Positions 14,227 to 56,199 of a stretch of 64,000 bases of DNA are shown here, piece after piece (within the stretch, counting starts at the first letter, position 1; each line of letters begins with the position of its first letter). The notes under the pieces were generated by a model that was not told the DNA's origin, did no database searches, and worked only from the letters and a program-made list of their open reading frames with translations. The translations under genes were made by a program, and so were the position numbers. The stretch is from an uncultured archaeon (GTDB lineage Archaea; Aenigmatarchaeota; Aenigmatarchaeia; GW2011-AR5). The DNA is taken from contig CAYJTG010000003.1 in assembly GCA_964373255.1 (NCBI GenBank), forward strand, positions 25,759 to 89,758. Direction: 5' to 3'.

Positions 14227-16101
14227 TCAGAAACCGAAAATGATTCTTATTATGGTAAGCAGCGACGACGATATGACATTTATTGGATCTGACATTTGTC
14301 CAACAGAAAGCCCAGTAATTACTTCATAACTGCTTTCTGTATCGTTCTGCGATTGGTTTGTGATTTCCATCTCTGTTGTTGGAAGTGACGTATTAAGTTC
14401 TGTGTCATTTATAGCATTAATTACTGGGGGTTCTGCCACATTTATTTCGTTTGTTATATCATTATTTTTGTCGTCAACCCTTACTCGTACACGAAACTTA
14501 TAAACGCCTTTTTCTGTGGTGTTTTCTATCTTGTTCTTAAGATAAAGTATTGTAGACGCTAATGTTGAAAGTTCAACACTCTGTTTATTTGCATCATAAG
14601 TGCCCTTCCACTTATTTTCATTGTTGTCTAACCCTAGTGAAACAGGATTATTGTCTTTGAAAACATACGAGTAAACTGTGAAATTCTTCTGGCTTGTGAA
14701 ATTGTTTGTGATTCTTACGGTTGTTGTAAACTCCTCTTCTATGTGCACGTTTGGCGGGTAGTTTACAACTTCGTACAAGGACACGTTTTGCTTCACAAAT
14801 ACTGTTGTAGTGCCCCCACCACCACCGCTTGTGCCAGAGCTGGATACTATTGTAGTTGTCTTGCAGACCGATGACGAAGACCCCTTAACGTTTATGTTTT
14901 TTGAGTCGATTGCATCAAGGCCTTCTGCAACAATCGCATAGGTGCCGTCAGAAAAAGTGCCGTCACAATTTGATTTTAATTGAACTGGAACTTTCAAGTT
15001 GTACGGTGTGAATTTATTTTCCAGATTCATATTTGTTATATCGCTGATCTTGTTGCCTGTGCTGTTTTTCACGAAAATATCGATAGACGTTTTTGAAGTA
15101 TTGCCCTTGTAAATACTTATAGAAACTTCTGCGGTTTCACCGTATTTTATCTCGTTATCCGATCCCACGTTAACGGATGTTATATTTATGGATGAATCAA
15201 ACTGTGGGCTTGAGCCTTTTACAACGATAACCTTGCTCGCATTATTATTACTCACGTCTGTATCATTGCATCCCGTACTGACAAGGGAAGCTTTGATATA
15301 GTAAGCTTCTGATCCTGTAATGCCATCAGGCGTCCACTGCCTGCCTATTGTTTTTGTGCACAGAAGTTCTGATGTTACTTCCATCGGTGATTTTACGAAA
15401 TTTCCAAAAATATCTTCGACAAAATAGTTTACCGTAGAATTGTGCATGGTATTATTGCACGTTGTATCGTTAACGATTAAATTAAAATTTATTGTCCCTA
15501 TTTCATAAACAACTGAATTTGTGCCTATCGAAAGCTCAAGGTTGCATATAAGTGTGGTGTTTTGCTGAGTCGTATTGGTTTGATTGGTTTGCTGGTTAAT
15601 TTTTGGCTTGTTAACAGCGCCAGGCGTGGGCTCGCATTCTGCAAAGCTGCTGTTGATTATGCAAATGGTTTTACCTTCGGCCGAAACAGGCGAGTATGTT
15701 ATATTGTCAAAAATTTCTGTAGAATTTTTTATCCAGACCGTTTCATTTGCAGAATTCAGAAGGTCTGACCACGAACTGTCTATCACTGGCCCTGTATAAT
15801 TAGAATAATCAGCAAGAAATAAAATCGCGTCCTGTGCAATAACCAAATACCCTCCGGGATTCAAAATCATTGTTCCTTGCCCACCATTTGCAGGCGGCGG
15901 ATTCAATGTATGATCAGTATTACCCGTGTTGAGTTTCCATCCTGTAAGATTGTAGATATCTGAGTCATTATTGTATACTTCTACCCATTCGTGTCCTGTG
16001 TCCGTCCCGTTTGGATTGTGCATTATTTCGTTTATAGAAATTCCATACGATACACTAGAAGAAACAGCTAAAATAAAAATGTACAACAAAATTTTATGCA
16101 T
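14227..16101 (-). CDS. Secreted surface protein. N-terminal signal peptide, lamin-tail (LTD) domain, Asn/Thr-rich region with many N-glycosylation sequons, and a C-terminal TM anchor.
   Basis: Signal-like N-terminus MHKILLYIFILAVSSSVSYG. LTD-like 'ISINEIMHNPNGTDTGHEWVEVYN...GWKL'. More than 25 N-x-S/T sequons. Hydrophobic C-terminus 'LLTIIRIIFGF'. Confidence 0.7.
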   Translation of the reverse strand: MHKILLYIFILAVSSSVSYGISINEIMHNPNGTDTGHEWVEVYNNDSDIYNLTGWKLNTGNTDHTLNPPPANGGQGTMILNPGGYLVIAQDAILFLADYSNYTGPVIDSSWSDLLNSANETVWIKNSTEIFDNITYSPVSAEGKTICIINSSFAECEPTPGAVNKPKINQQTNQTNTTQQNTTLICNLELSIGTNSVVYEIGTINFNLIVNDTTCNNTMHNSTVNYFVEDIFGNFVKSPMEVTSELLCTKTIGRQWTPDGITGSEAYYIKASLVSTGCNDTDVSNNNASKVIVVKGSSPQFDSSINITSVNVGSDNEIKYGETAEVSISIYKGNTSKTSIDIFVKNSTGNKISDITNMNLENKFTPYNLKVPVQLKSNCDGTFSDGTYAIVAEGLDAIDSKNINVKGSSSSVCKTTTIVSSSGTSGGGGGTTTVFVKQNVSLYEVVNYPPNVHIEEEFTTTVRITNNFTSQKNFTVYSYVFKDNNPVSLGLDNNENKWKGTYDANKQSVELSTLASTILYLKNKIENTTEKGVYKFRVRVRVDDKNNDITNEINVAEPPVINAINDTELNTSLPTTEMEITNQSQNDTESSYEVITGLSVGQMSDPINVISSSLLTIIRIIFGF

Positions 16102-16146
16102 AGATTATTTAATATGAAAGCTTAAATCTAAGAATAGCATGTGGGC

Positions 16147-16974
16147 TTATATGGGTTTCCATTCTTTTATTGCCTTTTCATAGCCGTGCGGCGTGCCGAC
16201 GTCAAAAAGGAAGCCGTCATGAACAAATCCTGTAACACTTCCCTTGCTGCTCAGTATAGAAAACAGCTTGTCGGTCATGACCTTCCCGTTTGGCACGTAT
16301 CTTAGTGCTTCAGGCTCAAATATGTAGAAGCTCGCGTCTATTAGATTGGTAGGCGCGTTCAAAGGCTGGTCAATAAATTCTACCACCTGGTTGCCGTGCA
16401 TTCTCACAACACCGTATTCTGTAGGATCGTTCGAATTTGAAAGTAGGATGGTTGCAAGTGCGCCCTGTTTCCTGTGGAAATTAAATAGCTCTGGTATGTT
16501 AGGATTTATGAGCGTATCTACATTCAAGACCGCAAATGTGTCGTGTATTTTTCCCCTAAGAAGCCGCAGAGCCCCCATCTTGCCGAGAGGCTTTTGTTCT
16601 ACAATATAATCTATCTTAACGCCAAATTTGCTGCCATTACCAAAATGTTCAAATATCTTTTCGTGGTTCTCTCCTACAGTAAGAATGATATTTCTTATGT
16701 CAAATTCCTTTAACATGTTTATCTGGTGCTCCAGAACAGGGCGGCCTTTGATCGGTATAAGCGCCTTAGGTATCTCGTATGTTATTGGTCTCAGCATCGC
16801 ACCGTCGCCACCGGCCATTATTACAACTGTATTCAAGTCTGTTTTTGCAAGGCCTCTCATGATAAGTTGTTCAACCGCGTGTGACCTGTTTCTTACATCT
16901 TCATGGTCGATTGTCTTGTCCAGTTTCCTTAGTATGTCAGATTTTATTGTTATAGTAACGCGCTTAAGAGTCAT
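16147..16974 (-). CDS. Fusion protein: N-terminal ribbon-helix-helix (CopG/Arc-like) domain joined to a sugar-1-phosphate nucleotidyltransferase domain.
   Basis: The first ~45 aa 'KRVTITIKSDILRKLDKTI...RNRSHAVEQLIMRGL' fit a beta-alpha-alpha RHH. It is followed by the nucleotidyltransferase motif 'VVIMAGGDGAMLRPITYEIPKALIPIKGRPVLEHQI'. Confidence 0.65.
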   Translation of the reverse strand: MTLKRVTITIKSDILRKLDKTIDHEDVRNRSHAVEQLIMRGLAKTDLNTVVIMAGGDGAMLRPITYEIPKALIPIKGRPVLEHQINMLKEFDIRNIILTVGENHEKIFEHFGNGSKFGVKIDYIVEQKPLGKMGALRLLRGKIHDTFAVLNVDTLINPNIPELFNFHRKQGALATILLSNSNDPTEYGVVRMHGNQVVEFIDQPLNAPTNLIDASFYIFEPEALRYVPNGKVMTDKLFSILSSKGSVTGFVHDGFLFDVGTPHGYEKAIKEWKPI

Positions 16975-17092
16975 TCATACCACGTATCCACAAAAGTATG
17001 AAAAAGTATGAAATTCCAAACTATTTAAACGTGACATCTATGTTTATTGTTGTGGTTTCTGTGGAATTCAATCGACCACAACCACTAAATCT

Positions 17093-17100
17093 TTAAAATT
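17093..17100 (+). promoter_or_regulatory. Candidate archaeal TATA box (TTTAAAAT) for the heptose-kinase gene. The 16975-17120 region is shared by divergent promoters.
   Basis: The A/T box lies about 21 nt upstream of the ATG at 17121. The RHH-nucleotidyltransferase gene is transcribed divergently from the same region. Confidence 0.3.
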
Positions 17101-17120
17101 ATGTTACCAATGGTGTCACT

Positions 17121-18155
17121 ATGATAATAAGAAGCAGGTCTCCTGTCAGAATATCATTCGGCGGAGGCGGAACAGATATACCGCCTTACTGTTTTGAAAG
17201 GGGCGGCTGCGTAGTGTCGGCAACAATAAACAAATACTCCTATGCAACCCTGCAGAGCCGAGATGACCAAAAAATATTCGTAGAATCTGTCGATTTCCTG
17301 AAAAGCACGGTATTTGGAAATATGTCTGAAATCGTCTATAACAATGAGCTTGATGTCCTGAAAGCTGTAATAAAAAATCTCAATCATACAGGCATGGGCG
17401 CTAATATATGGATGAGAAGTGATGTTCCGCCGCGTTCTGGGCTGGGGTCTTCGGCGGCTGCGTTCGCAGCCATGATAGGTCTTTTCAATCACATGCGTGG
17501 TGAGAAGGCAATGACGAACTATGAAATTGCCGAGCTTGCCTACAAGTTAGAGAGGGAAGAGCTGAAAATAGGCGGCGGGTACCAGGACCAGTATGCAACT
17601 GTATTTGGCGGCATAAATTATATTGAGTTTGCAAGCAACGGTATAAAGGTAAATCCGATAAAAATGAAGAAAGATCACGTACTGGAGTTAGAAAAGCACC
17701 TTGTTATTGCCTACGCTGGCGAAAGGCAGGCAAGCGGCGACATAATTGAGGCTGAAAAGAAGGGTTACAAGGAAAATAAAGAAGTCTTTGAAGCGCTTGA
17801 AAAAACAAAACAAATTGCGCAGGAAATAAGATACGCGATAATAAGGGGTGATTTTGAGAGGCTCGGTGCATTGCTGCATGAATCATGGGAAACAAAGAAA
17901 AAACATTCTGCCTTGGTGTCGCACCAACGCATAAATGATATATACGATCTGGCTAGAAAGAATGGCGCCATAGGCGGTAAAGTGTCTGGTGCAGGTGGCG
18001 GAGGGTTTATGTTTTTCCTGTGCGAGCCTAACAAGGAACATAATGTTGTTGCTGCTCTGGAAAAAATCGGTGCTAAACCTGTCAACTTCACATTCGATTT
18101 CGATGGTCTGCAGACATGGGAGCCTGCAAACCGTACCCCCATGATTTTGAATTAA
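17121..18155 (+). CDS. hddA: GHMP-family sugar kinase, likely D-glycero-alpha-D-manno-heptose-7-phosphate kinase (HddA-like).
   Basis: GHMP motif 'PPRSGLGSSAAAFAAMIG'. C-terminal 'GGKVSGAGGGGFMFFL'. Sits in an operon with gmhA and the gmhB-hddC fusion. Confidence 0.65.
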   Translation: MIIRSRSPVRISFGGGGTDIPPYCFERGGCVVSATINKYSYATLQSRDDQKIFVESVDFLKSTVFGNMSEIVYNNELDVLKAVIKNLNHTGMGANIWMRSDVPPRSGLGSSAAAFAAMIGLFNHMRGEKAMTNYEIAELAYKLEREELKIGGGYQDQYATVFGGINYIEFASNGIKVNPIKMKKDHVLELEKHLVIAYAGERQASGDIIEAEKKGYKENKEVFEALEKTKQIAQEIRYAIIRGDFERLGALLHESWETKKKHSALVSHQRINDIYDLARKNGAIGGKVSGAGGGGFMFFLCEPNKEHNVVAALEKIGAKPVNFTFDFDGLQTWEPANRTPMILN

Positions 18156-18172
18156 AATGAAGAAGTGATGTT

Positions 18173-18748
18173 ATGAACTACCTAGAGGAAAAAATGAATC
18201 TTCATAAAAAAATGGTTGATTTATTGGATTTGAAATCAATAGAAAGGGTTGCGGATGCGATATCAAAATGCTATAGAAGCGATGGCAAACTATTGATATT
18301 CGGCAATGGCGGTTCTGCGGCCGATGCGCTTCACTTTGCTGCGGAGTTCGAGGGACAGCTATCATCTGTAGACAAAAATCGGAAAGCGCTGCCAGCCATA
18401 ACACCGTCTAATTTGTCTGCATTGACAGCCATAAGTAATGATTATAATTATGATACTAGCTTTCTCCGTTTTGTTCAAGCTAATGCAAGGTCTAGTGATG
18501 TTGTCGTAGGCATAAGTACAAGTGGCAATTCAAAAAATGTGATTAACGCAATAAAAGAAGCCAAGAACATTGGTGCAACAACAGTTGGCTTTACCGGTTA
18601 TGACGGCGGTCAGTTAAAAGACTTTGTTGACATCCTTATGAATGTTCCTGCTTCTAATGTTTCAATAATACAGGAAGGCCACATTATAGCTTATCATCGC
18701 GTATGTGCTCTTGTTATAAAGGAATTGTTTGGTTATGATGCATTATGA
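18173..18748 (+). CDS. gmhA: Phosphoheptose isomerase (sedoheptulose-7-phosphate isomerase), SIS domain.
   Basis: 'LIFGNGGSAADALHFAAEF' and 'VVGISTSGNSKNVINAIKEAKNIGATTVGFTGYDGG' closely match GmhA signature regions. Confidence 0.85.
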   Translation: MNYLEEKMNLHKKMVDLLDLKSIERVADAISKCYRSDGKLLIFGNGGSAADALHFAAEFEGQLSSVDKNRKALPAITPSNLSALTAISNDYNYDTSFLRFVQANARSSDVVVGISTSGNSKNVINAIKEAKNIGATTVGFTGYDGGQLKDFVDILMNVPASNVSIIQEGHIIAYHRVCALVIKELFGYDAL

Positions 18749-20013
18749 AGCCTGCAGTTTTTTTGGACAGGGATGGTGTAGTAATTACAGCAACGCACCT
18801 AGTTACGAAAATGCAGGAAGTCGAAATAGAAAAAAATGCGCCTGACGCAATAAGAATTTTTAATGATCTTGGATTCAAGGTAATAATAGTTACAAACCAG
18901 CCGCAAGTGGCCCGCGGCCTGTGCACAGAAGAAGACGTCATCAAGATAAATAAAAATATAAAGAAAACCATGGAAAAAGATGGAGCTATAATTGATGATA
19001 TATATTTCTGCCCGCATCATCCGGAGATGCATGAAGATGTGCCGGAGTATGCAAAAAAATATCGAATAGATTGTCGTTGCAGAAAACCGAAGACAGGGAT
19101 GATATTAGAGGCGGCAAAAAAACATGATATAGATCTTTCAAAATCATTTATGATCGGTGATCGCACGGTTGATGCGATGACAGGCAAGAATGCCGGCATA
19201 AAGACAATTCTAGTAAAAACTGGCAGAGCAGGAATGGATGGCAAATACGATACTATTCCTGATCATATATGCGCCGATCTGATGGAAGCTGCAAAACTTA
19301 TCAAAAGATCAGTTACAACCAAGGCTGTCATCCTAGCTGGTGGCAAGGGCGAACGCCTGATGCCATTAACAAAGGACATACCAAAGCCGATGATAGAAAT
19401 AAGCGGCAAGCCCGTCTTGCAGCATCATATAGGACTATTGAAGAAATACGGGATAAATGAAATAATAGTCTGTGCGAGCTATCTTATCGACAAGATAAAA
19501 GACTTTTTTGGAAATGGTAAAAATTTTGGTGTGCAAATATATTATCCCGATGAGCCTGAGCAGCTCGGCACAGGTGGCGCAATAAAGAACGCAGAACAAT
19601 TTATCAAAGGCTGCAAAAATTTTATTGTATTGAATGGCGATGTCGTGACAAACATAAATTTGTCTGCATTACTTGATTTTCACGAAACTAAGGACTGTTT
19701 AGCTACAATTGTTGTTCGTAAGAGTGATCATCCGATAGACAGCGATATCGTTCAGTTGGATGAGAACAGGGTTATAAGGTATATAGGCCGTGGGCAGAAA
19801 AAGCACAAAGTCGCAAATACAGGCATAATGATATTAAAAGCTAGCATACTCGGGCACATAAAGAAGGGTGTATCGAACATCGAGACAGACGTGGTGTTTC
19901 GCATGCTTGATGACTATAAAATTTGTGCATATTTTTCCAACGATTACATAAAGGACATGGGCACTTTTGACAGGCTTGAAAAGGTCCGTAGGGAATTTTC
20001 GCTGATTTCCTGA
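18745..20013 (+). CDS. gmhB-hddC: Bifunctional D,D-heptose-1,7-bisphosphate phosphatase (GmhB, HAD) fused to D-glycero-alpha-D-manno-heptose-1-phosphate guanylyltransferase (HddC-like nucleotidyltransferase).
   Basis: N-terminal 'AVFLDRDGVV', 'CPHHPE' and 'CRCRKPKTGM', which are GmhB motifs. C-terminal 'KAVILAGGKGERLMPLTKDIPKPMIEISGKPVL', a nucleotidyltransferase motif. Confidence 0.8.
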   Translation: MKPAVFLDRDGVVITATHLVTKMQEVEIEKNAPDAIRIFNDLGFKVIIVTNQPQVARGLCTEEDVIKINKNIKKTMEKDGAIIDDIYFCPHHPEMHEDVPEYAKKYRIDCRCRKPKTGMILEAAKKHDIDLSKSFMIGDRTVDAMTGKNAGIKTILVKTGRAGMDGKYDTIPDHICADLMEAAKLIKRSVTTKAVILAGGKGERLMPLTKDIPKPMIEISGKPVLQHHIGLLKKYGINEIIVCASYLIDKIKDFFGNGKNFGVQIYYPDEPEQLGTGGAIKNAEQFIKGCKNFIVLNGDVVTNINLSALLDFHETKDCLATIVVRKSDHPIDSDIVQLDENRVIRYIGRGQKKHKVANTGIMILKASILGHIKKGVSNIETDVVFRMLDDYKICAYFSNDYIKDMGTFDRLEKVRREFSLIS

Positions 20014-20032
20014 GCTTATAAATCTTTAGTTT

Positions 20033-20971
20033 ATGTTGATAGTTATGAAAATGCTTGTAACGGGCGGCGCGGGATTTATAGGCTCAAATCTAGCCGAAGC
20101 ACTTGTGAATGAGGGGCATGAGGTTATAGTGCTTGATAATTTCTCAATTGGCAGGGAGGCTAATCTAAAGAATGTACTAGATCATATAAAATTAGTAAGG
20201 GGCGATATAAGGGATTTTGAACTCCTGTTAAAAATCACGAAAGATATAGATGTTATATTCAATCAAGCGGCTGCATCGTCGTCACACATGTTTTTGGAGA
20301 ATCTGAAAGATGCCTTATCAGTCAACATAGACGGTTTTGTACATATCCTTAATGCCGCGAAGATTAACAACGTAAAGCGTGTTGTTTATGCATCAACATC
20401 ATCCTTGTACGGAAACAACAAGCCACCGTTAAGAGAGGATATGAAAATTGCGCCGGTAAATTTTTATGCATCATCTAAGCTTATGAATGAGCACATAGCA
20501 GCCTTGTACAGCCTTGAATACGGACTGGAGACAATAGGCCTTCGTTACATGAGCATATACGGTCCACGCGAAGAATGCAAGGGACGATTCGCAAACATGG
20601 TAAGCCAGTTCTTGTGGTCGATGCAGAAAAACGAGCAGCCGATAATTTACGGCGACGGCATGCAAACAAGAGATTTTACATTTGTAAAAGACGCTTGCAT
20701 GGCAAATATACTTGCAGCAACTGCCAAGAAGGGCATGAATGATATATTTAATGTTGGCACAGGCAAGTCGACAGATCTTAACAGGCTTGTAGAAATCCTT
20801 AATATGAAATTAAACAAAAGCGTAACACCAAAATACATATCAATGCCTATAAAGAACTACGTATTTTCACAGATGGCGGACATTGAAAAAATCAAGAACG
20901 CATTCGGCTATGAACCTAGATCTACGCTGGAAAAAGGTATCGATGAAATGCTTTCCACAACTCTCAAATGA
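20033..20971 (+). CDS. NAD-dependent NDP-sugar epimerase/dehydratase (extended SDR).
   Basis: 'LVTGGAGFIGSNL' Rossmann motif and a YxxxK context. 312 aa. Start likely at about 20045 (MKMLVTGG). Confidence 0.7.
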   Translation: MLIVMKMLVTGGAGFIGSNLAEALVNEGHEVIVLDNFSIGREANLKNVLDHIKLVRGDIRDFELLLKITKDIDVIFNQAAASSSHMFLENLKDALSVNIDGFVHILNAAKINNVKRVVYASTSSLYGNNKPPLREDMKIAPVNFYASSKLMNEHIAALYSLEYGLETIGLRYMSIYGPREECKGRFANMVSQFLWSMQKNEQPIIYGDGMQTRDFTFVKDACMANILAATAKKGMNDIFNVGTGKSTDLNRLVEILNMKLNKSVTPKYISMPIKNYVFSQMADIEKIKNAFGYEPRSTLEKGIDEMLSTTLK

Positions 20972-21656
20972 GTCCTATCCTTAGCTTAATTATGTTTATC
21001 AGCATTCTCGGCCCGTACTTAAGCTGAAACTTTGAATATTCACCATGCTTCCATATGACAGGTGCCTCAAATATTCTGCAGCCCTTCTTTTTCAGTCGCC
21101 AGAGCAATTCGACATCAAACTCGAATCCATACAGTTTCATATTATTCAGCACGCCTTTAGCTGCTTCTTTGCGAAAGACTTTTGCCCCGCATTGTGTGTC
21201 TTTTACATCAAGATTAAATAGTGTATTAACTATCACGTTGAACGTCTTGCTCGCTATGCGTCTACGCAGTGGCTGCTTTATCGAAATAATAGAATCTTTT
21301 GTGCGCCTAGACGCAATAACACAGTCATAAGATTTCAGGAATTCAAATAATTTGACATACTCTTCTGGCGTTATCGGTTCATCAGCGTCCATGAAGCCTA
21401 CAAGATTGCCGCTGCATCTGCGCAGGCCTTCAACAACGGCTTTCCCTTTTCCCATCCTTTTTTGCTTTATGAGCTTTATTCGCTTGTTATTTTTGGATAT
21501 TTCGCTTACAATCTTCGGCGTGTTGTCTATTGATCCATCAGAAACGACGATTATTTCGTAATCTTTTTTAGTTTTCGCAAGAAAACTGGAATAATCCTCT
21601 AGTGCTTTTTGTATTCTTTTTTCCTCATTAAAAGCAGGTATAACGATCGAATACAT
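20964..21656 (-). CDS. GT2-family glycosyltransferase, dolichyl-phosphate hexose synthase (DPM1-like) type.
   Basis: 'YSIVIPAFNEE', then 'VVSDGSIDNT' and 'MDADE' (DxD). 230 aa and soluble. Confidence 0.78.
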   Translation of the reverse strand: MYSIVIPAFNEEKRIQKALEDYSSFLAKTKKDYEIIVVSDGSIDNTPKIVSEISKNNKRIKLIKQKRMGKGKAVVEGLRRCSGNLVGFMDADEPITPEEYVKLFEFLKSYDCVIASRRTKDSIISIKQPLRRRIASKTFNVIVNTLFNLDVKDTQCGAKVFRKEAAKGVLNNMKLYGFEFDVELLWRLKKKGCRIFEAPVIWKHGEYSKFQLKYGPRMLINIIKLRIGLI

Positions 21657-21659
21657 AAT

Positions 21660-22763: not shown

Positions 22764-22813
22764 ATCCTATTGTAATGTACAATAACTTTTAAACTGTGAT
22801 ATTTTTAATCAAG

Positions 22814-26897: not shown

Positions 26898-26940
26898 AAA
26901 ATCATCTCTATAGTTATAGAAAAAATTAAATTACGCAAAA

Positions 26941-27915: not shown

Positions 27916-27920
27916 AAGTC

Positions 27921-31711: not shown

Positions 31712-31914
31712 AGATTTAGTAAATCTGTTAAATTTAAATATTAATGTTGTACACTATAGATGACCCTCCTTGCGTTTAAAACCGCAGGTTTTTGCTAGTG
31801 CTAAAAGAAGGTCACGTTATGTGTTCCTGCCATACGAGCACATCTCAGGGCTTGCCTATTTATGATTTTGTGCTAATTGAGATTTGTACAGCCCTCTAGA
31901 TACACGGTGAAAAA

Positions 31915-32604: not shown

Positions 32605-32630
32605 CTACGACGAGGAGATAATTGTTTGCA

Positions 32631-34027: not shown

Positions 34028-34031
34028 GGAA

Positions 34032-39019: not shown

Positions 39020-39066
39020 CCTATAAAATTCTTCGTGATAACTTTAAACAATAAATAAGCCTAAAA

Positions 39067-41522: not shown

Positions 41523-41736
41523 TAAATAACCTCAACGTAATGTGCATGTTATTATTGTTTCTGTTTAAATCACGTATCGATAATTTTTTAACGTCATCCT
41601 CAAGCAAGTAAAGAATTATATATATTACAGTTTGCGTCATATATGCTTAGAAAGTGAGACTTTCTAGATGCTAAAAACTTGTGCTTTTTGGCATAACTAA
41701 CAATAAAACTAACAAAATTTTTGGTGGTGAAGTAAC

Positions 41737-42831: not shown

Positions 42832-42888
42832 CTTGGCGGTGTTGTCAATTAAAAAGGCTTTAATACTTTTTCCTTTACACTTAGGTAC

Positions 42889-43848: not shown

Positions 43849-43857
43849 GGCGATTTA

Positions 43858-44811
43858 ATGGCATTGAAGGCTAAAAAAATAGTTGTTGCTGGTGCTTCTG
43901 GATTTCTTGGGAGGAATTTTACACATTCTCTAACTAAAGCTGGGTATAAAAATGTCATTGTACTAAGCTCTAAGGATTACGACCTTACAGAGCAGATAAA
44001 AGTAAGGCAAATGTTTGCGGATTTGAAGCCTGAAATCATCATCAATCTTGCAGGGTACGTAGGTGGTATATTAGCAAACAAAACCTATCCTGCTGACTTC
44101 TGCTACAGGAACCTTATAATGAACGCAATGCTTCTTCATGAAGCTTATATAAATAATGTAGAAAAAATAATTTCGTGCATAGGTGGCTGCAGCTATCCGG
44201 CAAACGCACAAAGCCCTATAAAGGAGGAAAACCTGTGGGAAGGCTATCCGCAAAAAGAAAGCGGCCCGTACTCTGTGACAAAGCGCATGGTTGCTGAGCA
44301 GGGTAATTCATACAGGCAGCAGTACGGGCTGAACGCCGTTACTGTTGTTCCTGGCAACATGTACGGCCCGTACGATAATTTCTCACTGAACAATTCACAT
44401 GTTATTCCGGCGTTAATAAGAAAATTTTACGAGGCAAAGAAAGAACACAAAAACGAGGTAGTCGTATGGGGCAGTGGCAAACCTACAAGAGACTTTGTTT
44501 TTGTGGAAGACGTAGCAGAATGCCTTATAAAAGTCCTAGAGGATTATAACGGTCCGCAGATAATAAACATATCGTCCGGCACAGAAGTACCTATACGAGA
44601 ACTTGTAGAAACAATATCAGAACTTATCGGCTTTGATGGAAGTATAGTATGGGACTCGTCCAAACCTGACGGCCAGATGAGAAAAATATTTGACGTCACA
44701 AAAATGAAAAACATTCTTGACTTTGAATGCAGAACAGATCTAAGAACCGGCCTGAAAAAAACGATACAGTGGTTTGAAGAGAACTACGAAAAAGGTACTG
44801 TAAGATTGTGA
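43858..44811 (+). CDS. GDP-L-fucose synthase-like 3,5-epimerase/4-reductase (GMER/Fcl family). Alternatively a GDP-6-deoxy-heptose reductase.
   Basis: 'KIVVAGASGFLGRN', 'GNMYGPYDNFSLNNSHVIPALIRKFYEA', close to the Fcl signature 'NLYGPHDNF...SHVIPALLRRFHEA'. Confidence 0.75.
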   Translation: MALKAKKIVVAGASGFLGRNFTHSLTKAGYKNVIVLSSKDYDLTEQIKVRQMFADLKPEIIINLAGYVGGILANKTYPADFCYRNLIMNAMLLHEAYINNVEKIISCIGGCSYPANAQSPIKEENLWEGYPQKESGPYSVTKRMVAEQGNSYRQQYGLNAVTVVPGNMYGPYDNFSLNNSHVIPALIRKFYEAKKEHKNEVVVWGSGKPTRDFVFVEDVAECLIKVLEDYNGPQIINISSGTEVPIRELVETISELIGFDGSIVWDSSKPDGQMRKIFDVTKMKNILDFECRTDLRTGLKKTIQWFEENYEKGTVRL

Positions 44812-44907
44812 AATACGAACACAACTGGCGATATGTAATGATCGTACATATTGCATTGTTCAAGTGGAAGAACATGGAATCGGAGTTGACTTTGAAGCAT
44901 AAAACAG

Positions 44908-44931
44908 TCTTTACTTAGTTCTTTACTTAGT
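44908..44931. repeat. Perfect tandem duplication of a 12-nt unit (TCTTTACTTAGT, twice) across the stop codon of the 44923-45447 gene.
   Basis: Read directly from the sequence. Confidence 0.5.
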
Positions 44932-45447
44932 TAATTCTACGTGAAGCTCTTTTGCCGGAAATATCCACGCGAGTCCTGAATTTTCATAAAGCCACGGAAA
45001 CCTATTTGCTATAGGCGACATCCAAGAAAAAAATCTGCTGAACACAAGGTTTGTCGTAACTTCAGAAAAATGGAATTTGTAGTAGTAGCTCAGATTGTTG
45101 CCTGCCATAAATGGCGCAAAGCTCTCCTTTGTAAAATACCACTTGTGGTGCGGATGGTAGGCGCTCGGTATTGTGGCGTAAGGCACAACTATGTACGCCC
45201 TGCCGCTTTTTTTTAGCACCTTGTGTATTTCTGACATCGCCTTTTCAAAGTCTTTAACGTGCTCTATCGTGTGCTCTGTAAATATTTCATCTATACTGTT
45301 TTGTTTGAATTTTTCTGACAAATTACATACGTCCACAACAACGTCGGGCTTCACGGCCTTAGATATATCGCAGTTTACGTAGCCTTGTTTCCGTTTAGCG
45401 CCACAACCAATATAAAGTTTTGCCATAAAATCATTTTCCTCTTGCAA
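44923..45447 (-). CDS. Small SAM-dependent methyltransferase-like protein.
   Basis: 'LYIGCGAKRKQGYVNCD' and 'IFTEHTIEHV', resembling the Methyltransf_11 family. 174 aa. Confidence 0.5.
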   Translation of the reverse strand: MQEENDFMAKLYIGCGAKRKQGYVNCDISKAVKPDVVVDVCNLSEKFKQNSIDEIFTEHTIEHVKDFEKAMSEIHKVLKKSGRAYIVVPYATIPSAYHPHHKWYFTKESFAPFMAGNNLSYYYKFHFSEVTTNLVFSRFFSWMSPIANRFPWLYENSGLAWIFPAKELHVELTK

Positions 45448-46189
45448 AATCGAAAACGGTCTTTTGTGTCTTCTCGATACTACAGATCTTTTTTATTTTC
45501 GATACGTTGACATTGTACGCCTCTTTCTTCAGTTTGTAAAGATTTTTATCAAGGCGTACTCCAACAAATTTAGCCGCCTCCTCTAACTTGATTGTTCCGT
45601 CACCGCAGATATTGAATATTTCATTTTTTTGGTTTCTTATCTGATAAATTATTCTAGCAACACCAGACGTGTTTATGTACTGGTATTCGGATCTTGGGCT
45701 GACAAACAACGTGCCTTTTGTCATAAGGTCGAATATGGCGTTCTTCTTCAGGCCTTCCCCAACCATACCACCGAGTCTTGTTATCAGCCAGTCGTTTGTG
45801 TATTTTTTGACGATCTGTTCGCACAGCCACTTGCCGAACCCGTAATTGCTGAGCTTCTCAGGCGTAATCTTTGCGTCTTCTCTGTTCCTTTTTGTGTCTG
45901 AAACGTCATTATAGACGTCTATAGACGATATCAGTATGTATTTCTTGAATCTGAAATCCACAACTGTATTCAATACCGACAATACATTGAGTTCAAAATC
46001 TTTTTTTGGGTCCTCCGCGGCCAGCCTCTTCTTTGAAGAACCGCCTGCGTTTATAAATATATCACAGTTGCTGCCAACAAAGTCTGTATAATTATCCCTG
46101 TCTATACCAGCAAAATCTATTCGTTTTGACTGAAGATATTTTCCTATTGCTGATCCAACAAATCCCTTATACCCAAGCAAGTATATCAT
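45431..46189 (-). CDS. Short NAD(P)-binding Rossmann protein. dTDP-4-dehydrorhamnose reductase / epimerase-like.
   Basis: 'IYLLGYKGFVGSAI' glycine-rich N-terminus. 252 aa. Confidence 0.45.
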   Translation of the reverse strand: MIYLLGYKGFVGSAIGKYLQSKRIDFAGIDRDNYTDFVGSNCDIFINAGGSSKKRLAAEDPKKDFELNVLSVLNTVVDFRFKKYILISSIDVYNDVSDTKRNREDAKITPEKLSNYGFGKWLCEQIVKKYTNDWLITRLGGMVGEGLKKNAIFDLMTKGTLFVSPRSEYQYINTSGVARIIYQIRNQKNEIFNICGDGTIKLEEAAKFVGVRLDKNLYKLKKEAYNVNVSKIKKICSIEKTQKTVFDFARGK

Positions 46190-47151
46190 TTGATATCAGC
46201 CTTCCTGAACTTTATGTATCCTTTTGTGAAATAATAAAACCTTGACAGTGGTATAATCCATATGAAAATCAATAGTTTTAACTTTTCACCAATTGATCCG
46301 TCTTTATCTTCGACTAGTTTTCTACCAGCAATTATCAAATATATTAAAACTATGAATATTGCTGCTGTGGCATAAAATGCCGCCGAATAAAGAAACGCTA
46401 AAAGCAGGAAAGGCGAAAAGACACTTGGCCATATAGTTGCTGGCATGCCATTTTTATAAAAATATTTTTTGTACAATTTGGCGTGCTTTCTTATGAGCAG
46501 ACCATCATAGAGGAATGTCCGCTGGTTTTTAATCCTGTAAAACACAGAAACTTTTTTTGAAATATGTGTCATCCTTGCTTTTTCACAATACACCATTTTG
46601 TAGCCGCTTTCTATAACACTCCACGCGAGGTCTGTATCTTCTCTGGCTATTTTAAACCTTTTGTCAAATCCGCCGATTTTTTTTATTATGCTCATCCTGT
46701 AGGCGCTGTTATGCCCTATGAACTGCAAATAATCGTTTTCCATGTGGTACCAGAAAAGCCCTTTTTTATCAGCGGCAGTCCGTCCTATAACTCCGCCAAC
46801 GGATTTGTCTGAAAACGGCTTTACAATCTCTTCCATCCAGTTTTTTTCGACGATGCAGTCGGAATCTACAAAAATAACTATTTCGCCCTTTGCCATATCG
46901 ATGCCTGTATTTCTTGCGGCGTTTCTTCCTGGTGTTTTATCGACAAGAATTTTCAGCCTCTTGCTCTTCTTTGCGTATGCGTTCAGCATTTCAAGCGTCC
47001 CGTCTGTTGAGCCGCCATCAACGGCAACAATCTCGTAATTCTTGTAGTCAGACCTGAGCATTGCATCAATGGTTTTTTTCATGAGGTCTTTTCTATTATA
47101 AACAGAAATGACAACAGAAACTGATAATTCTTTCATTTTAATCGCCTTCAA
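46186..47151 (-). CDS. GT2-family glycosyltransferase with C-terminal TM helices.
   Basis: 'VSVVISVYNR', 'VDGGSTDGT', 'VDSDC'. Confidence 0.8.
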   Translation of the reverse strand: MKAIKMKELSVSVVISVYNRKDLMKKTIDAMLRSDYKNYEIVAVDGGSTDGTLEMLNAYAKKSKRLKILVDKTPGRNAARNTGIDMAKGEIVIFVDSDCIVEKNWMEEIVKPFSDKSVGGVIGRTAADKKGLFWYHMENDYLQFIGHNSAYRMSIIKKIGGFDKRFKIAREDTDLAWSVIESGYKMVYCEKARMTHISKKVSVFYRIKNQRTFLYDGLLIRKHAKLYKKYFYKNGMPATIWPSVFSPFLLLAFLYSAAFYATAAIFIVLIYLIIAGRKLVEDKDGSIGEKLKLLIFIWIIPLSRFYYFTKGYIKFRKADIK

Positions 47152-47182
47152 ATAAGAAAATGTATTGTTATATTTTGAGTTT

Positions 47183-48361
47183 TTAGACTGTCTCGTTGAA
47201 CCGTACCCTGAAAAGCTTGACCTCTCCGCCCCAGCTATTTACGAATTCGAAACTGTTTAGACCTACGCCGTTGAACAGAAACATCCTTGTAAACAGCGCA
47301 TTTTCCAGTTCTGGTGTCATAAAGAGGAGTGTTTGCCTTGAACCGTCTAACCATAAGGTCCCCTTGACCTCTGCCGCTGCGTCGTTATACAAATTGAATG
47401 CACCCTGACGGTCGAAGTACCATAATTTCTCTACGCGAAGAAGGTTGTTTTGCTGCTGCAGAAAAGGCCTGAGCGTGCCATTTGTCTCGTACAAAACAAA
47501 CGCGCTGTCTTGTGCAACCCTGTAATAGAATGCTATAGCGTTCTGGTCTAAAACAGGTCGCGCGGATTCTAGCGGTATTATGACGTAGTTGTGCCGCTGC
47601 CCATAGTTCGGCGCATTTGTCGGGTTCCACGTGGCGAAATAAGTCCACCACTGGCTTTTACCTATAAGATCCGAGGACGCGATATAGTAGAGTTCATCGC
47701 AGTCGGGCTTTTTATAATCTTTCAGAATTTTCACAGCTAACGTCTCGTTGCCTGTGAACAGTGTTGTTCCGATGTCCTGTATTCGTGCCCTTGTAACAGT
47801 TCCGTCTTTATAAAACAATACGCGGTTTATGCCGTGGTCTTGCTGCTCAATAACGATCCCGGTTTTTGTTTCGTCGGTTGGCAATGTTATAGTAGAACCC
47901 TGAGATGCTCCATCAAATACAATAGCACGCCGAGCTATGCCAGTTATAAAATGCCCTGGGTCCCAGTACGTTGCGATGACGGCGCATTCCTTTGTATTGT
48001 TCTTTATCCAGTTAAGTGCCTCCCACCAGTTGTCCGAAAGCACGGTACCAGAACACTCTGAGATTCTTAGACTATCGAGGTAATAGACATTCACAAAAAA
48101 TATGAATATTATAACCAAGAGAACGAATGAAAACAGTTCTCTGTTATTTATCCTTTTGCCAAAACGTGCACCTATGGCTATAAGAAATATAACAGCGGCA
48201 CCTATATAGAGCTGTAATGAATATCCGTCAATCCAGTCCTGGGACGTCATGGAACCACAGGTTGTTTGTACGCCACTAAAGAGAATCAACAGCACATATA
48301 TGATTACTATACTGATGATGCCTGCAGTAAATTTATTCGCGTTTATGTCCATGCTAATCAC
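47183..48361 (-). CDS. aglB: C-terminal part of AglB/STT3 oligosaccharyltransferase. Three TM helices followed by a periplasmic catalytic domain with a WWDYG-type motif.
   Basis: 'TYWDPGHFITGIARRAIVFDGAS' lies immediately after the third TM helix, as the WWDYG block does in STT3/PglB/AglB. The reading frame is offset from the upstream TM ORF. Confidence 0.55.
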   Translation of the reverse strand: MISMDINANKFTAGIISIVIIYVLLILFSGVQTTCGSMTSQDWIDGYSLQLYIGAAVIFLIAIGARFGKRINNRELFSFVLLVIIFIFFVNVYYLDSLRISECSGTVLSDNWWEALNWIKNNTKECAVIATYWDPGHFITGIARRAIVFDGASQGSTITLPTDETKTGIVIEQQDHGINRVLFYKDGTVTRARIQDIGTTLFTGNETLAVKILKDYKKPDCDELYYIASSDLIGKSQWWTYFATWNPTNAPNYGQRHNYVIIPLESARPVLDQNAIAFYYRVAQDSAFVLYETNGTLRPFLQQQNNLLRVEKLWYFDRQGAFNLYNDAAAEVKGTLWLDGSRQTLLFMTPELENALFTRMFLFNGVGLNSFEFVNSWGGEVKLFRVRFNETV

Positions 48362-49541
48362 TCATGTTCTTATCCTCACCGCTAGCCAAACGGAACAATT
48401 TAGAAAATAAAATTCCTGCAGCTATAGCTACCGGGGCTGAAAACAGTATTGTAAATCTTATAGCAACAAGTGTTGCCAAGAATGGGCCAACAAACCATAT
48501 GGCGAGCAAAATAATTGTGTCAAGGTGCTGCCTCTTTTTTATAAACGAAAATAATAGGTAGATAATACAGAATATCATGAGGAAAAATGGCGAGCCTATG
48601 CGGTTTATTATTTCCTTGGCGTCAGAAGGGTTCTGAAGCTCAGCGACAGACACATAAACATTCGGGAAGGTTCTTGCTTCGCTTTTGATTTCCGGAAACT
48701 GGATTGGTCCTGTTATCGTGGAAACGATAGGGTTGACGCCGAAAACCGGAACGGTAAAGGCGAAGAACAGCAAAATAATTATGACATAAGAAAATATCGG
48801 AGACCTATAATTGTGTAATGTTTGCCTTGCATTTTTTGTTTTTATGAAACTTGTAACGATCTTTAGAAACACAAATCCTGTTATCAGCCAAACAACAAAC
48901 CAGAATCCGCTCCATGTATAGTACCACGCTGTAAGTGCTAAGCCGGCTGCAATTGAAAGTACGATTGTTTTCTTTCGAAATCCTTGTTCCAACGATATTT
49001 TATGCGCTACAACAAAAAGTGCCATGACAACTAGAGGCATCAGAAGGACTATTCCGTCGCTGTCCGGGTCGCCGCCAAGCGTTCGCGCTATAATCGATGC
49101 GTCAAACATGATAAATGCCGCTGCCAGCACACCCGCCTTCCTGTCGTACAGTGTTTTGGCCAAAAAATACATTGGTATAGCCATCAGGGCAGCAAGAAAT
49201 GCTGGAAACCATATAAGAAACTGAAATAGTGACGTGCCTTGCGAAAATATATGGTAAAACATATATGCGTATGCGCTGAAATAGACGTAGAAATCTTGGC
49301 TTATAACTCTGTCAACACCAAAAGGCGCCTGCGCAAGTTCATTTCTTGCTGGAAGTGCTCCACCGTTGTTAACTATATCTTCTATATCTCTGGCAAAATT
49401 GTACGAGTCAATATTTCTGAGGTAAGGCCACCTGTAATCTATAAGTCTTATATACATCCCAAGAATCATGATTACAACAAGAGCTATGATCACCCAGCGT
49501 TTACTCAGAAATGCCAACAACGTGTTCTTGTTTATTAACAT
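48354..49541 (-). CDS. aglB: N-terminal membrane domain of AglB/STT3 oligosaccharyltransferase (about 10 TM helices).
   Basis: 395-aa polytopic ORF with first-loop acidic motifs ('RNIDSYNFARDIEDIV', 'GGDPDSDG'). It ends in a TAG that overlaps the start of the downstream catalytic-domain ORF by 8 nt in another frame. Confidence 0.5.
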   Translation of the reverse strand: MLINKNTLLAFLSKRWVIIALVVIMILGMYIRLIDYRWPYLRNIDSYNFARDIEDIVNNGGALPARNELAQAPFGVDRVISQDFYVYFSAYAYMFYHIFSQGTSLFQFLIWFPAFLAALMAIPMYFLAKTLYDRKAGVLAAAFIMFDASIIARTLGGDPDSDGIVLLMPLVVMALFVVAHKISLEQGFRKKTIVLSIAAGLALTAWYYTWSGFWFVVWLITGFVFLKIVTSFIKTKNARQTLHNYRSPIFSYVIIILLFFAFTVPVFGVNPIVSTITGPIQFPEIKSEARTFPNVYVSVAELQNPSDAKEIINRIGSPFFLMIFCIIYLLFSFIKKRQHLDTIILLAIWFVGPFLATLVAIRFTILFSAPVAIAAGILFSKLFRLASGEDKNMSD

Positions 49542-49600
49542 ATTTGCATATGTTTGAGAAAAATGTTTAAATACCGATTATTTAGATAGGATTCCATATT

Positions 49601-49700
49601 CGTATGATGATGGTCGACGTGAGAGGCATTATCTGTCGATAATGCCTCTAGCTGACATATACGTCAACTGACGTATATGTCTACGTCGACCATCATACTT
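49601..49700. repeat. Structured palindromic element: an outer inverted repeat enclosing two perfect 12-bp hairpins with 4-nt loops.
   Basis: Outer arms CGTATGATGATGGTCGACGTG (49601-49621) and TACGTCGACCATCATACT (49683-49700). Hairpin 1 AGAGGCATTATC-tgtc-GATAATGCCTCT (49622-49649). Hairpin 2 GACATATACGTC-aact-GACGTATATGTC (49654-49681). Confidence 0.6.
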
Positions 49701-49716
49701 TAATGGAATTCCATCA

Positions 49717-50829
49717 TTATTTGCCAATAATTCTTGTTATCTTTGGCAAAAGAAACCGTGCAAGTTTGAATTTCGGGAGTTTTTTCCATTCGTCGCTGAG
49801 CTTGTCGTAATCAAAGCCGTCGAGCATGGACAGGACGTAACCAAAATCTTTGAACATCCCATCGATTTCTTTGTTTGTCAGTTTTCTGTATATCATTCTC
49901 AGCATATACTGCTTCTCTATTTCCCATGCTATATCCTTTTTCCACATTTTTTCATAGCTGCTGAGAAAATGTTTGCTGAACGTACCTTCTTTCAGCGCGC
50001 TGTTTATTACATCAGCGGCGTGCTGCGCCGCCATCATCGAGTACATTATTCCGCCTCCAGTCAGCGGCTTATTCTGGCCGCACGCGTCGCCTATCAGGAG
50101 CGCGTTGTTCTCGTAGCTTTTTGTGTAAGTGTACGGTATCATGTAGGCGTACATCTTACCCGGTGGCAGGTACGTTTTCTTGACAAAATAGTCAAAGTAA
50201 TCTTTTGGCCGTACGCACGTCATTATTCCGTACTCGTTGTTTTGCGGTATAATCCAAGAAAAGAAATCCGGCGAGAAATATTTGTTGAAAAATACGCTTA
50301 TGTCGCCTTCCATTTTTTGCCGTGTCTTCACCATTATACCCAGCGCGACTTTTGGATTTTCTATATTCATTGCACGCCTTACAACAGAATTAGTGCCGTC
50401 ACACCCGACGACAATTTTTGCCCTGTATTCTTCGTCTTTTGTCTTAACGACCGCACAGTTTTCAGCAAACTTGACCGATTCGACGGTTTCATAAGAAATG
50501 TCTGCATTTTTCCTTGCGTTTTTTCTAAGAGACCTGCCGAACATTTTCCTTCTGAGTATGTATGCGTAAGGCTCGTCTGACTGAAGGGAAAACGTGTGCC
50601 CGGAAGGCGATACGCATTCCATTTTGTTTATTCTGAATTTTACAAGCTTTTTGGCAGAACCACCAAAAATGTTGTCGAACCTTGTAGAAACTATGCCGCT
50701 GTCCTTTGGAATTACTTTTCTGTTTTGCTCCAAAATAAGCACGCTATACTTTGGGTTTATCCTTGACGCCAGGTAGCTTCCAGCGATACCGGCACCGGCA
50801 ATAACAACGTCGTACATGACAACACTCAT
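49717..50829 (-). CDS. FAD-dependent geranylgeranyl reductase family protein. Candidate polyprenol / dolichol reductase.
   Basis: 'YDVVIAGAGIAGSYLA' FAD-binding site. 370 aa. GGR/FixC-like. Confidence 0.72.
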   Translation of the reverse strand: MSVVMYDVVIAGAGIAGSYLASRINPKYSVLILEQNRKVIPKDSGIVSTRFDNIFGGSAKKLVKFRINKMECVSPSGHTFSLQSDEPYAYILRRKMFGRSLRKNARKNADISYETVESVKFAENCAVVKTKDEEYRAKIVVGCDGTNSVVRRAMNIENPKVALGIMVKTRQKMEGDISVFFNKYFSPDFFSWIIPQNNEYGIMTCVRPKDYFDYFVKKTYLPPGKMYAYMIPYTYTKSYENNALLIGDACGQNKPLTGGGIMYSMMAAQHAADVINSALKEGTFSKHFLSSYEKMWKKDIAWEIEKQYMLRMIYRKLTNKEIDGMFKDFGYVLSMLDGFDYDKLSDEWKKLPKFKLARFLLPKITRIIGK

Positions 50830-56180: not shown

Positions 56181-56199
56181 TGAAAGATTGAAGAAAATG

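Follow-up and report, generated by a model that had tools for sequence, protein, structure and literature searches.

Genes at the locus and the two halves of AglB

We analyzed a 64,000-nt window (the whole stretch of DNA considered here) from an uncultured archaeon of the DPANN phylum Candidatus Aenigmatarchaeota. Positions 14227-50829 of the window, 36,603 bp in all, are occupied by a glycosylation block of 35 tightly packed open reading frames (ORFs) distributed over both strands, and the genes for its oligosaccharyltransferase (OST), AglB, lie toward the right-hand end. To our knowledge, the catalytic subunit of OST is, as a rule, one polypeptide across Bacteria, Archaea and Eukarya, and the initial annotation likewise described AglB as the product of one gene. 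Instead, it is encoded by 2 ORFs on the minus strand. The N-half (48354..49541) specifies 395 aa and ends ...GEDKNMSD followed by TAG, while the C-half (47183..48352) specifies 389 aa from its ATG, or 392 aa if translation begins at a GTG at 48361. The ATG of the C-half lies 1 nt past the stop codon of the N-half and in a different frame, and the alternative GTG would produce an overlap of 8 nt. The same split is present in 4 independent assemblies of this strain.

The N-half matched the Pfam STT3 family (PF02516) at 97.1 bits, relative to a cut-off of 24.5, and its profile matched AglB of A. fulgidus with E=8e-24. Residues D45 (within RNIDSY), D158, D160 and D162 (within GGDPDSD), E301 (within VSVAELQ, the external loop 5 (EL5) motif) and R362 were invariant in 10 sequences. 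The catalytic segments aligned with GGNDPW, GFNDHH and NRF of the A. fulgidus protein, and the acidic residues and arginine expected of an OST were present. The AlphaFold2 model of the N-half had a pLDDT of 81, with low confidence only around residues 39-43, 155-159 and EL5 (283-301); past EL5 it contains long helices at 317-336, 340-359 and 361-387, with R362 following the second of these. The top 18 Foldseek matches were all STT3, AglB or PglB, with query-normalised TM-scores of 0.57-0.68. By analogy with PglB and AglB, the N-half probably corresponds to the core formed by transmembrane (TM) helices 1-12.

The C-half had no Pfam or NCBIfam match. Its profile matched human STT3A with E=2.8e-8, with ATYWDPGHFIT aligned to SWWDYGYQIT, and its AlphaFold2 model (pLDDT 91.2) consists of three TM helices together with an alpha/beta external domain. 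All 31 Foldseek matches in the PDB with E<=1e-3 were to PglB, AglB or STT3, and PglB 6gxc ranked first (E=5e-12). Among 37 C-half sequences 46 columns were invariant, including the Y-W-D-P-G motif (ATYWDPGHFI), in which W-D-x-G is kept; full-length outgroups carry WWDPG. In the OST family, variation of the WWDXG motif is accepted at the fourth position only (PMC11407970), and the novelty of YWDPG therefore lies at the first position. Roughly 60 residues past the motif is a second conserved segment, R190-I191-Q-D193-I-x-T-T-L198 (IQDIxTTL), which resembles MxxIxxx(I/V/W) in sequence and may be the counterpart of the DK or MI motif of OST external domains. Of the three TM helices, only that right before the motif is conserved; the two extra N-terminal helices of the window C-half are missing from several homologues and are topologically neutral. 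The pair departs from a standard AglB, STT3 or PglB in having its two domains on separate polypeptides, and we class it as a variant of the family on that account.

Homologues of the N-half (9 of 9, at 41-52% identity) stop at one aligned column. In the loci examined for these homologues the next ORF follows within 1-2 nt, encodes a protein of 324-419 aa lacking a Pfam match, and aligns with the window C-half at 47-54% identity. A scan of genome contigs using the C-half identified 70 loci, nearly all of them labelled Candidatus Aenigmatarchaeota, with the best matches at 60-63% identity; the species of the window itself did not appear among them, and the closest N-half, on a 5.8-kb contig (L071), was 71.5% identical. 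A stop codon separates the halves in 70 of 73 loci, at spacings (+1, 0, -4, +4, +10 and -11 nt, among others) that span all three relative frames. Because frames and spacings vary in this way, a recoding signal shared by these loci is excluded. At locus L024 (976-3708) a gene for a 220-aa S-adenosylmethionine (SAM) methyltransferase (2120-2782) is situated between the N-half (976-2139) and the C-half (2728-3708), and a similar gap of ~650 nt separates the halves at L025 and L064. The remaining 3 of the 73 loci are truly fused, namely L051 (8339-10927, 862 aa), L061 (8858-11038, 726 aa) and L076 (6492-9119, 875 aa), and their proteins read continuously across the junction region. Loci L018 and L041, which had been candidates for fusion, were rejected since their BLAST alignments ran across an in-frame stop.

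Homologues of the C-half fall into 240 clusters, the best 120 of which are all 296-488 aa in length. In an exhaustive profile search, representatives scoring >250 bits were almost all 244-435 aa, and below them ranked full-length proteins of 700-850 aa that match over their C-terminal part and bear WWDPGH. That these full-length relatives rank next indicates that the split clade derives from fused AglBs. In a rough neighbor-joining tree the fused members were scattered among the split members rather than basal, which suggests that fission or fusion may have occurred repeatedly. A scan for sigma-70 promoters and terminators around aglB performed no better than on shuffled sequences, and the sigma-70 model is inapplicable to archaea. 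Our literature search found no description of a split, frameshifted or two-gene AglB, or of glycosylation in Aenigmatarchaeota, although an earlier account may exist; the two-gene OST is apparently undescribed. Automatic annotation by JGI already calls some of the C-halves 'dolichyl-diphosphooligosaccharide--protein glycosyltransferase'.

Gene inventory and the predicted surface glycoprotein

Genes of the block were assigned to families by a Pfam scan of its ORFs, with best NCBIfam matches used for finer assignment. These assignments bore out most of the counts given in the initial annotation: 12 glycosyltransferases (GTs; 5 GT2, 5 GT4 and 2 GT-C), 5 methyltransferases (MTs), a Wzx-type flippase and a reductase candidate, with genes in mixed orientation. 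The sugar-nucleotide enzymes had been undercounted, at 8 rather than 13. These comprise 3 nucleotidyltransferases (1 of them fused to a HAD phosphatase), a GHMP kinase, a SIS isomerase, a UDP-glucose dehydrogenase and 7 enzymes of the short-chain dehydrogenase/reductase (SDR) epimerase/dehydratase type.

We describe the block as two modules. Module 1 (~39-50.8 kb, beside secFD) contains the reductase, the two-gene AglB, a membrane GT2, a GT4, Wzx, an MT and 6-deoxyhexose-type SDRs. Next to SecF is a flavoprotein of the geranylgeranyl-reductase family (49717..50829, minus strand, 370 aa; Pfam Lycopene_cycl and FAD_binding_3), which scored 150 bits with NCBIfam GG-red-SF against a cut-off of 159. 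In Haloferax volcanii a geranylgeranyl-reductase homologue saturates dolichol. The flavoprotein may be a polyprenol/dolichol reductase, and could equally be a membrane-lipid reductase, with mevalonate-pathway genes nearby. On the other side of the aglB pair, accessory genes extend over 39067..47151, in the order 4,6-dehydratase-like protein (313 aa, minus strand), Wzx/MOP flippase (40008-41522, 504 aa, minus), GT4 (41737-42831, 364 aa, plus), epimerase (319 aa, plus), GDP-fucose-synthase-like protein (317 aa, plus; NCBIfam Fcl, 305 bits), MT (44923-45447, 174 aa, minus), short SDR (252 aa, minus) and membrane GT2 (46186-47151, 321 aa, minus). The flippase matched PF01943 at 95 bits (cut-off 28) and PF13440 at 72 bits and has multiple hydrophobic segments, which places it in the family and predicts a flipping function. 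Adjoining these genes on the minus strand at 36001..39019 are an epimerase/dehydratase (303 aa), a nucleotidyltransferase (273 aa) and an AglM-like UDP-glucose 6-dehydrogenase (431 aa), the last of which scored 484 bits with NCBIfam AglM and 472 bits with NDP-sugDHase, above the cut-off of 190 for the latter. This triad may represent a supply of hexuronic acid that joins the two modules.

Module 2 (14.2 to ~36 kb) holds the gene for a surface protein, a heptose-like cassette, two GT2/GT-C pairs, further GT2 and GT4 genes, and four MTs. A sugar-1-phosphate nucleotidyltransferase (16147..16974, minus strand, 275 aa; Pfam NTP_transferase, 124 bits) precedes the 4-gene NDP-heptose-like cassette (17121..20971, plus strand). 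In the latter, an HddA-like GHMP kinase (17121-18155; NCBIfam HddA, 272 bits versus an equivalog cut-off of 600) is followed by a GmhA-like SIS isomerase (18173-18748; 165 bits versus 209), a GmhB-like phosphatase fused to a nucleotidyltransferase (18745-20013; GmhB, 148 bits versus 178) and a heptose-epimerase-like SDR (20033-20971; heptose_epim, 184 bits, below the equivalog cut-off). The nucleotidyltransferase found its best match in HddC, at 114 bits versus an equivalog cut-off of 300.

A run of genes on the minus strand (20964..29797) comes next: GT2 (20964-21656, 230 aa), GT4 (21660-22763, 367 aa), GT-C/PMT_2 (22814-24346, 510 aa), GT2 (24343-25278, 311 aa), GT-C/PMT_2 (25275-26897, 540 aa), epimerase (26941-27915, 324 aa), GT2 (27921-28643, 240 aa) and GT4 (28640-29797, 385 aa). 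The two short GT2s (230 and 240 aa), which lack a TM segment, are encoded beside the two GT-C genes, and their best NCBIfam matches were polyprenyl-phosphate sugar synthases (PgfS, ArnC, AglJ and PpgS); in the three longer GT2s, TM segments are found at the C terminus. The remainder of the module (29860..35962, mixed strands) consists of MT (29860-30555, 231 aa, plus), GT4 (30527-31711, 394 aa, minus), MT (31915-32604, 229 aa, plus), MT (32631-33296, 221 aa, minus), MT_24 (33293-34027, 244 aa, minus), GT2 (34032-34970, 312 aa, minus) and GT4 (34967-35962, 331 aa, minus).

The initial annotation had placed a sequon-rich surface protein at the flank of the block. Such a protein exists and its excess of sequons is significant, but it is the product of the first gene inside the block rather than of a flanking one. 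This candidate surface glycoprotein (14227..16101, minus strand, 624 aa) has a signal peptide, a lamin-tail (LTD) domain (Pfam, 50 bits) and a C-terminal hydrophobic anchor. It contains 27 N-X-S/T sequons, whereas shuffles that preserve its composition gave 15.0 +/- 3.3 (p=0.0006); of the 27, 20 (74%) are N-X-T. Its sequon density is 4.3 per 100 aa, compared to <=1.6 for every other protein of the window. The LTD protein would thus be an obvious client of AglB.

Conservation in relatives, base composition and flanks

The initial annotation raised the question of whether the block is strain-specific and regarded it as compatible with horizontal acquisition. We compared it with the Aenigmatarchaeota loci L081/L082, L085, L087 (GCA_016191585.1), L005, L006, L010 and L011. 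Of these, L081 and L085 lie on one 225.8-kb contig (JGI 3300045117) from the closest relative represented by long contigs. Relatives carry both modules with the internal order intact, and only a few genes differ. At L081 the order is Cdc6, thiolase, SecD, SecF, reductase, AglB-N, AglB-C, GT2, MT, SDR, Fcl-like protein, epimerase, GT4, Wzx and dehydratase, which reproduces 39-50.8 kb of the window; housekeeping genes (SpoIIM and HMG-CoA reductase) follow the AglB module on that contig. The AglB module has the same order at L081/L082 and the more distant L005, with amino-acid identities of 51-82% (AglB-C is 72% identical between the window and the L081 contig). In the same loci the housekeeping proteins SecD, SecF and thiolase are 52-58%, 60-63% and 77% identical, respectively (52%, 60% and 77% at L081). 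The reductase lies between SecF and the split AglB at L005, L081, L010 and L011, with other genes intervening at L006, where the UDP-glucose dehydrogenase triad adjoins the split AglB (GW2011_AR5-type genomes, 52-71% identity).

The counterpart of 14.2 to ~32 kb of the window is found at L085, at 55-85% identity, in the order LTD protein, nucleotidyltransferase, GHMP kinase, SIS isomerase, HAD/NTP fusion, epimerase, GT2, GT4, GT2, GT-C, GT-C, GT2, GT4, MT, and, after an interval, GT4, GT2, MT and MT. L087 has the same order as this part of the window at 60-85% identity. In both loci the heptose cassette (61-85% identity) and the GT run of 20964..29797 (55-68%) are collinear with the window, and the nucleotidyltransferase of 16147..16974 has a 71% identical ortholog in L085. 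The LTD ortholog in L085 adjoins the same heptose cassette and has 12 sequons within its first 184 aa. A 593-aa ORF lacking a Pfam match occupies 922-2703 of L085, between a GT4 and the MTs.

Module 2 shows local gene turnover. The epimerase of 26941-27915, a GalE/dTDP-glucose-dehydratase-like SDR, is missing at that position in L085 and L087; its GC content is 0.40, compared to 0.30-0.35 for its neighbors, and the gene has been inserted locally into an otherwise conserved GT-C module. The GT-C of 22814-24346 is conserved in L087 and replaced in L085. The 231-aa MT and 394-aa GT4 have 61-72% identical orthologs in L085, while the 221-aa MT, the MT_24 and the 331-aa GT4 have weak counterparts or none there. 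The stretch from 31.9 to 36 kb is both the most variable and the lowest in GC (0.30-0.36).

Base composition had been described in the initial annotation as not obviously different from that of the surroundings. Codon-position GC and k-mer tests contradict this view, as 21.6-43.8 kb is clearly atypical. Between ~21 and 44 kb the GC content is 0.30-0.38, compared to 0.41-0.48 outside. GC at third codon positions (GC3) averages 0.32 over the 21 genes of 21.6-43.8 kb, against 0.48 over 22 genes in the flanks (Mann-Whitney p=3.7e-6), and is 0.23-0.36 across 29860..35962. The tetranucleotide distance from the flanks peaks at 2-3.5x the flank baseline over the low-GC region. Low-GC genes are nevertheless among those with orthologs in relatives, at identities of 51% (Wzx), 64% (364-aa GT4), 82% (319-aa epimerase) and 62-65% (540-aa GT-C). 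For the last of these (25275-26897), the one low-GC gene whose homologues were searched for, the closest were from Aenigmatarchaeota (45-65%), with those from bacteria at <=36%.

Miniature inverted-repeat transposable element (MITE)-like and palindromic elements had been placed at the edges of the block. The two MITE-like copies (1525-1721 and 56061-56181) are intergenic and lie 12.5 kb and 5.2 kb outside it, such that only one palindromic structure, near the right edge and within the block, remains of this claim. The MITE-like copies are 97% identical over 107 nt, with a 77-nt internal insertion in copy A, and have terminal inverted repeats (GGCACTGTCA(A/C)CTTAA...TTAAGTTGACAGTGCC) plus internal hairpins. 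The palindromic element (49585-49716, 130 nt) lies 45-170 nt upstream of aglB-N, between the stop codon of the reductase gene and the start of AglB-N, and directly downstream of the former. It forms three hairpins, an outer stem and two perfect inner hairpins (-72.5 kcal/mol, z=-12.4), and four independent Logan contigs break off within it. Among the loci examined it was seen only in same-strain contigs and in none from relatives, and the left edge of the block has nothing comparable. A tRNA scan found no tRNA, no Rfam match reached the gathering cut-off, and Pfam found no integrase, transposase or other mobility domain in the block and flanks; no repeats bound the block.

The flanks are composed of archaeal housekeeping genes: a class II aminoacyl-tRNA synthetase, RadB, Cdc48, MetAP, PyrD/PyrF, Lhr, SecF/SecD, NAC, TctA, PolB, Cdc6/Orc1 and thiolase. 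SecF, searched for as an exact protein sequence, had no match. The predicted SecD ORF (51615-53381, GTG start, 588 aa) overlaps SecF (50920-51768) by 154 nt. The corresponding overlap in relatives is ~4 nt, and thus the true start of SecD in the window is probably further downstream. Just past the secD stop, at 53385-53475, is an imperfect inverted repeat of 34 nt, 76% complementary and with a spacer of 23 nt, that overlaps the start of a 126-aa ORF lacking a family match, opposite the NAC gene. Further along, a gene-poor region of ~1 kb (55185-56200) precedes ~400 bp of non-coding DNA beside cdc6/orc1 (61391-61788). The latter contains an inverted pair, CCATTATTTCT / AGAAATAATGG, at 61461-61483 and 61661-61683, which could be origin recognition box-like elements belonging to a replication origin; the distance to PolB is 1 kb.

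A proposed pathway, its alternatives and known systems

Based on family membership and gene order, we consider it probable that the block is a protein-glycosylation supercluster of Candidatus Aenigmatarchaeota, inherited within the lineage, composed of two modules and encoding an N-glycan pathway with a two-gene, heterodimeric AglB. In this pathway, the sugar-nucleotide enzymes would supply NDP-heptose, UDP-glucuronate (AglM-like) and a 6-deoxyhexose (through the 4,6-dehydratase-like and Fcl-like proteins), from which cytoplasmic GT2s and GT4s, together with the MTs, would build an O-methylated oligosaccharide on dolichol phosphate. Wzx would translocate the lipid-linked glycan across the membrane, and on the outside of the cell the two GT-C enzymes would lengthen it from Dol-P-sugars that the short GT2s produce. 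Finally, the AglB-N/AglB-C heterodimer would move the glycan onto the Asn of N-X-S/T, for example in the LTD protein. The N-half would contribute the metal-binding and catalytic acidic residues and EL5, and the C-half the last TM helix and the external domain, with YWD binding the +2 Ser/Thr. With respect to the OST itself, we favor the view that Aenigmatarchaeota use a naturally split, two-subunit enzyme, in which the AglB-N core and the YWDPG-bearing AglB-C assemble in the membrane, as a phylum-wide exception to the single chain; the evidence makes this reasonably likely.

Several observations weigh against these views. Each functional step is deduced from family membership, and the NCBIfam equivalog scores all fall under their cut-offs, which renders the sugar identities tentative. 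In the C-half the WWDXG motif begins with Y instead of W, with a possible effect on activity. The GC dip of 21.6-43.8 kb is much weaker in relatives (0.418 at L085 versus 0.454 at L081); a GC drop of this strength is peculiar to the present genome, and simple vertical descent does not explain it. The two modules are ~16 kb apart in the closest relative with long contigs, and module 2 may therefore serve another glycoconjugate. Lastly, Pfam identified no clear initiating enzyme in the block: PF00953 and PF02397 are absent, and only DPM1/AglJ-like GT2s are present. Initiation would have to fall to an AglJ/AglK-like GT2 or to a gene elsewhere. The claim of the initial annotation that the block covers the whole N-glycosylation logic fits all of the family assignments and the conserved linkage in relatives, and is slightly overstated with regard to this first step.

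We weighed three other explanations for these observations. A pseudogene in decay, a frameshift introduced by sequencing, or a translational fusion of the halves produced by recoding (frameshifting or stop read-through) might be suspected behind the split AglB from the direct adjacency of the halves in the window, the 8-nt overlap that the GTG start would create, the 3 fused homologues and the non-canonical WWDYG motif. However, the split falls at the same position in 70 of 73 loci of many genomes and in all 4 assemblies of this strain, with varied frames and gaps and, at L024, an unrelated MT gene between the halves. Moreover, both halves are full length, preserve at least 46 invariant columns that include all catalytic and motif positions, and yield confident OST-like models. 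We accordingly regard this explanation as highly improbable. A separate question is whether module 2 makes a glycoconjugate of its own and is merely adjacent here, through O-glycosylation by PMT_2-type GT-C enzymes, or as a glycolipid/lipoglycan or surface polysaccharide. The separation of the modules in the relative, with SpoIIM and HMG-CoA reductase between them, is consistent with this idea, as are the lack of an OST in module 2 and the PMT_2/ArnT-like family of its GT-C enzymes, members of which O-mannosylate proteins or modify lipids. On the other hand, module 2 has no flippase, Wzy polymerase, chain-length or export genes of its own, and its linkage to the LTD protein, with the significant excess of sequons in the latter (74% of them N-X-T), is invariable. 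Furthermore, the Dol-P-Man-dependent AglS of Haloferax volcanii finishes an N-glycan on the cell exterior, which provides a precedent for the GT-C enzymes acting in N-glycosylation. A separate product of module 2 therefore appears unlikely. A capsule/exopolysaccharide locus was rejected, as polymerase, export and chain-length genes are lacking.

The third explanation holds that the block, or its low-GC core (21.6-43.8 kb), is an island recently acquired from a lower-GC donor. This would account for the depressed GC3 and the 2-3.5x tetranucleotide distance, of which relatives show little or no trace, as well as for the MT221, MT_24 and GT4_331 genes without L085 orthologs, the inserted epimerase (26941-27915) and the GT-C replaced in L085 (22814-24346). 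However, gene order and content are common to at least three relatives at housekeeping-like identity, low-GC genes included, the nearest homologues of the one low-GC gene searched belong to the same phylum, and neither integrase, transposase or tRNA genes nor bounding repeats were found. At the most, the data are compatible with turnover of single genes or with recombination involving a member of this lineage whose GC is lower, the latter being a possible source of the low GC, and a recent island is in our view rather doubtful. Horizontal transfer of the whole block was rejected on the grounds of synteny and same-lineage identities, and the horizontal acquisition considered in the initial annotation is thus unsupported at the scale of the block: synteny, identities like those of adjacent housekeeping genes and same-phylum homologues of the GT-C gene searched argue that it is not an island. 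Rather, the supercluster consists of two lineage-conserved modules brought side by side, with real local gene turnover.

The cluster itself is a large but conventional aglB-centered glycosylation locus. That a DPANN lineage of reduced genome keeps 35 contiguous genes for surface decoration, ~3-4% of a genome of probably ~1 Mb (as judged from a relative's contig of 918 kb), is in keeping with a central role of the cell surface in an episymbiotic lifestyle. If the two AglB halves form an active enzyme, they would represent a natural domain dissection of OST, with the metal/lipid-linked-oligosaccharide site set apart from the WWD domain that binds the +2 Ser/Thr. In that event, the split enzyme would offer a tractable system for studying how the external domain and EL5 cooperate, with the fused relatives serving as controls. 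Surveys of AglB that rely on full-length models or on the WWDYG motif would miscall Aenigmatarchaeota.

Relative to the agl clusters of Euryarchaeota, of which that of Haloferax volcanii (aglJ/P/Q/E/R/F/I/G/B/M with AglS/AglD; PMC11407970 and our general knowledge) is the example considered here, the block likewise places an OST amid GT2 and GT4 genes. It also shares with the H. volcanii system a SAM methyltransferase, a Wzx-like flippase, an AglF-like nucleotidyltransferase, an AglM-like UDP-glucose dehydrogenase, a Dol-P-sugar synthase paired with a transferase step acting outside the cell, and a surface glycoprotein as target, which in the block is predicted. In contrast to those clusters, the OST of the block is encoded by two genes and bears YWDPG; the block is larger (35 ORFs), with five MTs, two GT-C enzymes and a heptose-like cassette; and its host is a DPANN archaeon of small genome whose glycobiology is predicted from genes. 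No equivalog-level match to any Agl protein was obtained. The cassette would provide the same four activities as the bacterial GDP-D-glycero-D-manno-heptose pathway (GmhA, HddA, GmhB and HddC), which serves S-layers, lipopolysaccharide and capsules, although by best match only and with all scores below equivalog cut-offs. Unlike the bacterial pathway, its phosphatase and nucleotidyltransferase are fused and a heptose SDR follows. Heptose in the N-glycan of Thermoplasma acidophilum provides a precedent for this sugar in an archaeal N-glycan (PMC11407970).

The two AglB halves together reproduce the architecture of the single-chain AglB, PglB and STT3 enzymes (PDB 3WAJ, 5GMY, 7E9S, 3RCE, 6GXC and 6S7O), with which they share the Asp of external loop 1, the acidic cluster of external loop 2, the Glu of the EL5 (S/T)(I/V)xE motif, the conserved Arg, the last TM helix and an external domain with a motif of the WWDXG type. 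They differ from these enzymes in that the polypeptide is interrupted in the cytoplasmic loop that follows TM12, Tyr stands for the first Trp of the motif, and in structure the C-half finds its best match in bacterial PglB and not in archaeal AglB. Alg13/Alg14 and EpsE/EpsF, relative to MurG-like enzymes, offer a precedent for an enzyme of glycosylation that is, depending on the lineage, either fused or made of two interacting polypeptides (PMC4973528). In contrast to AglB, Alg13/Alg14 has a GT-B fold and catalyzes another reaction, and its split separates the membrane anchor from the catalytic domain, whereas both parts of the split AglB would serve the active or the acceptor site.

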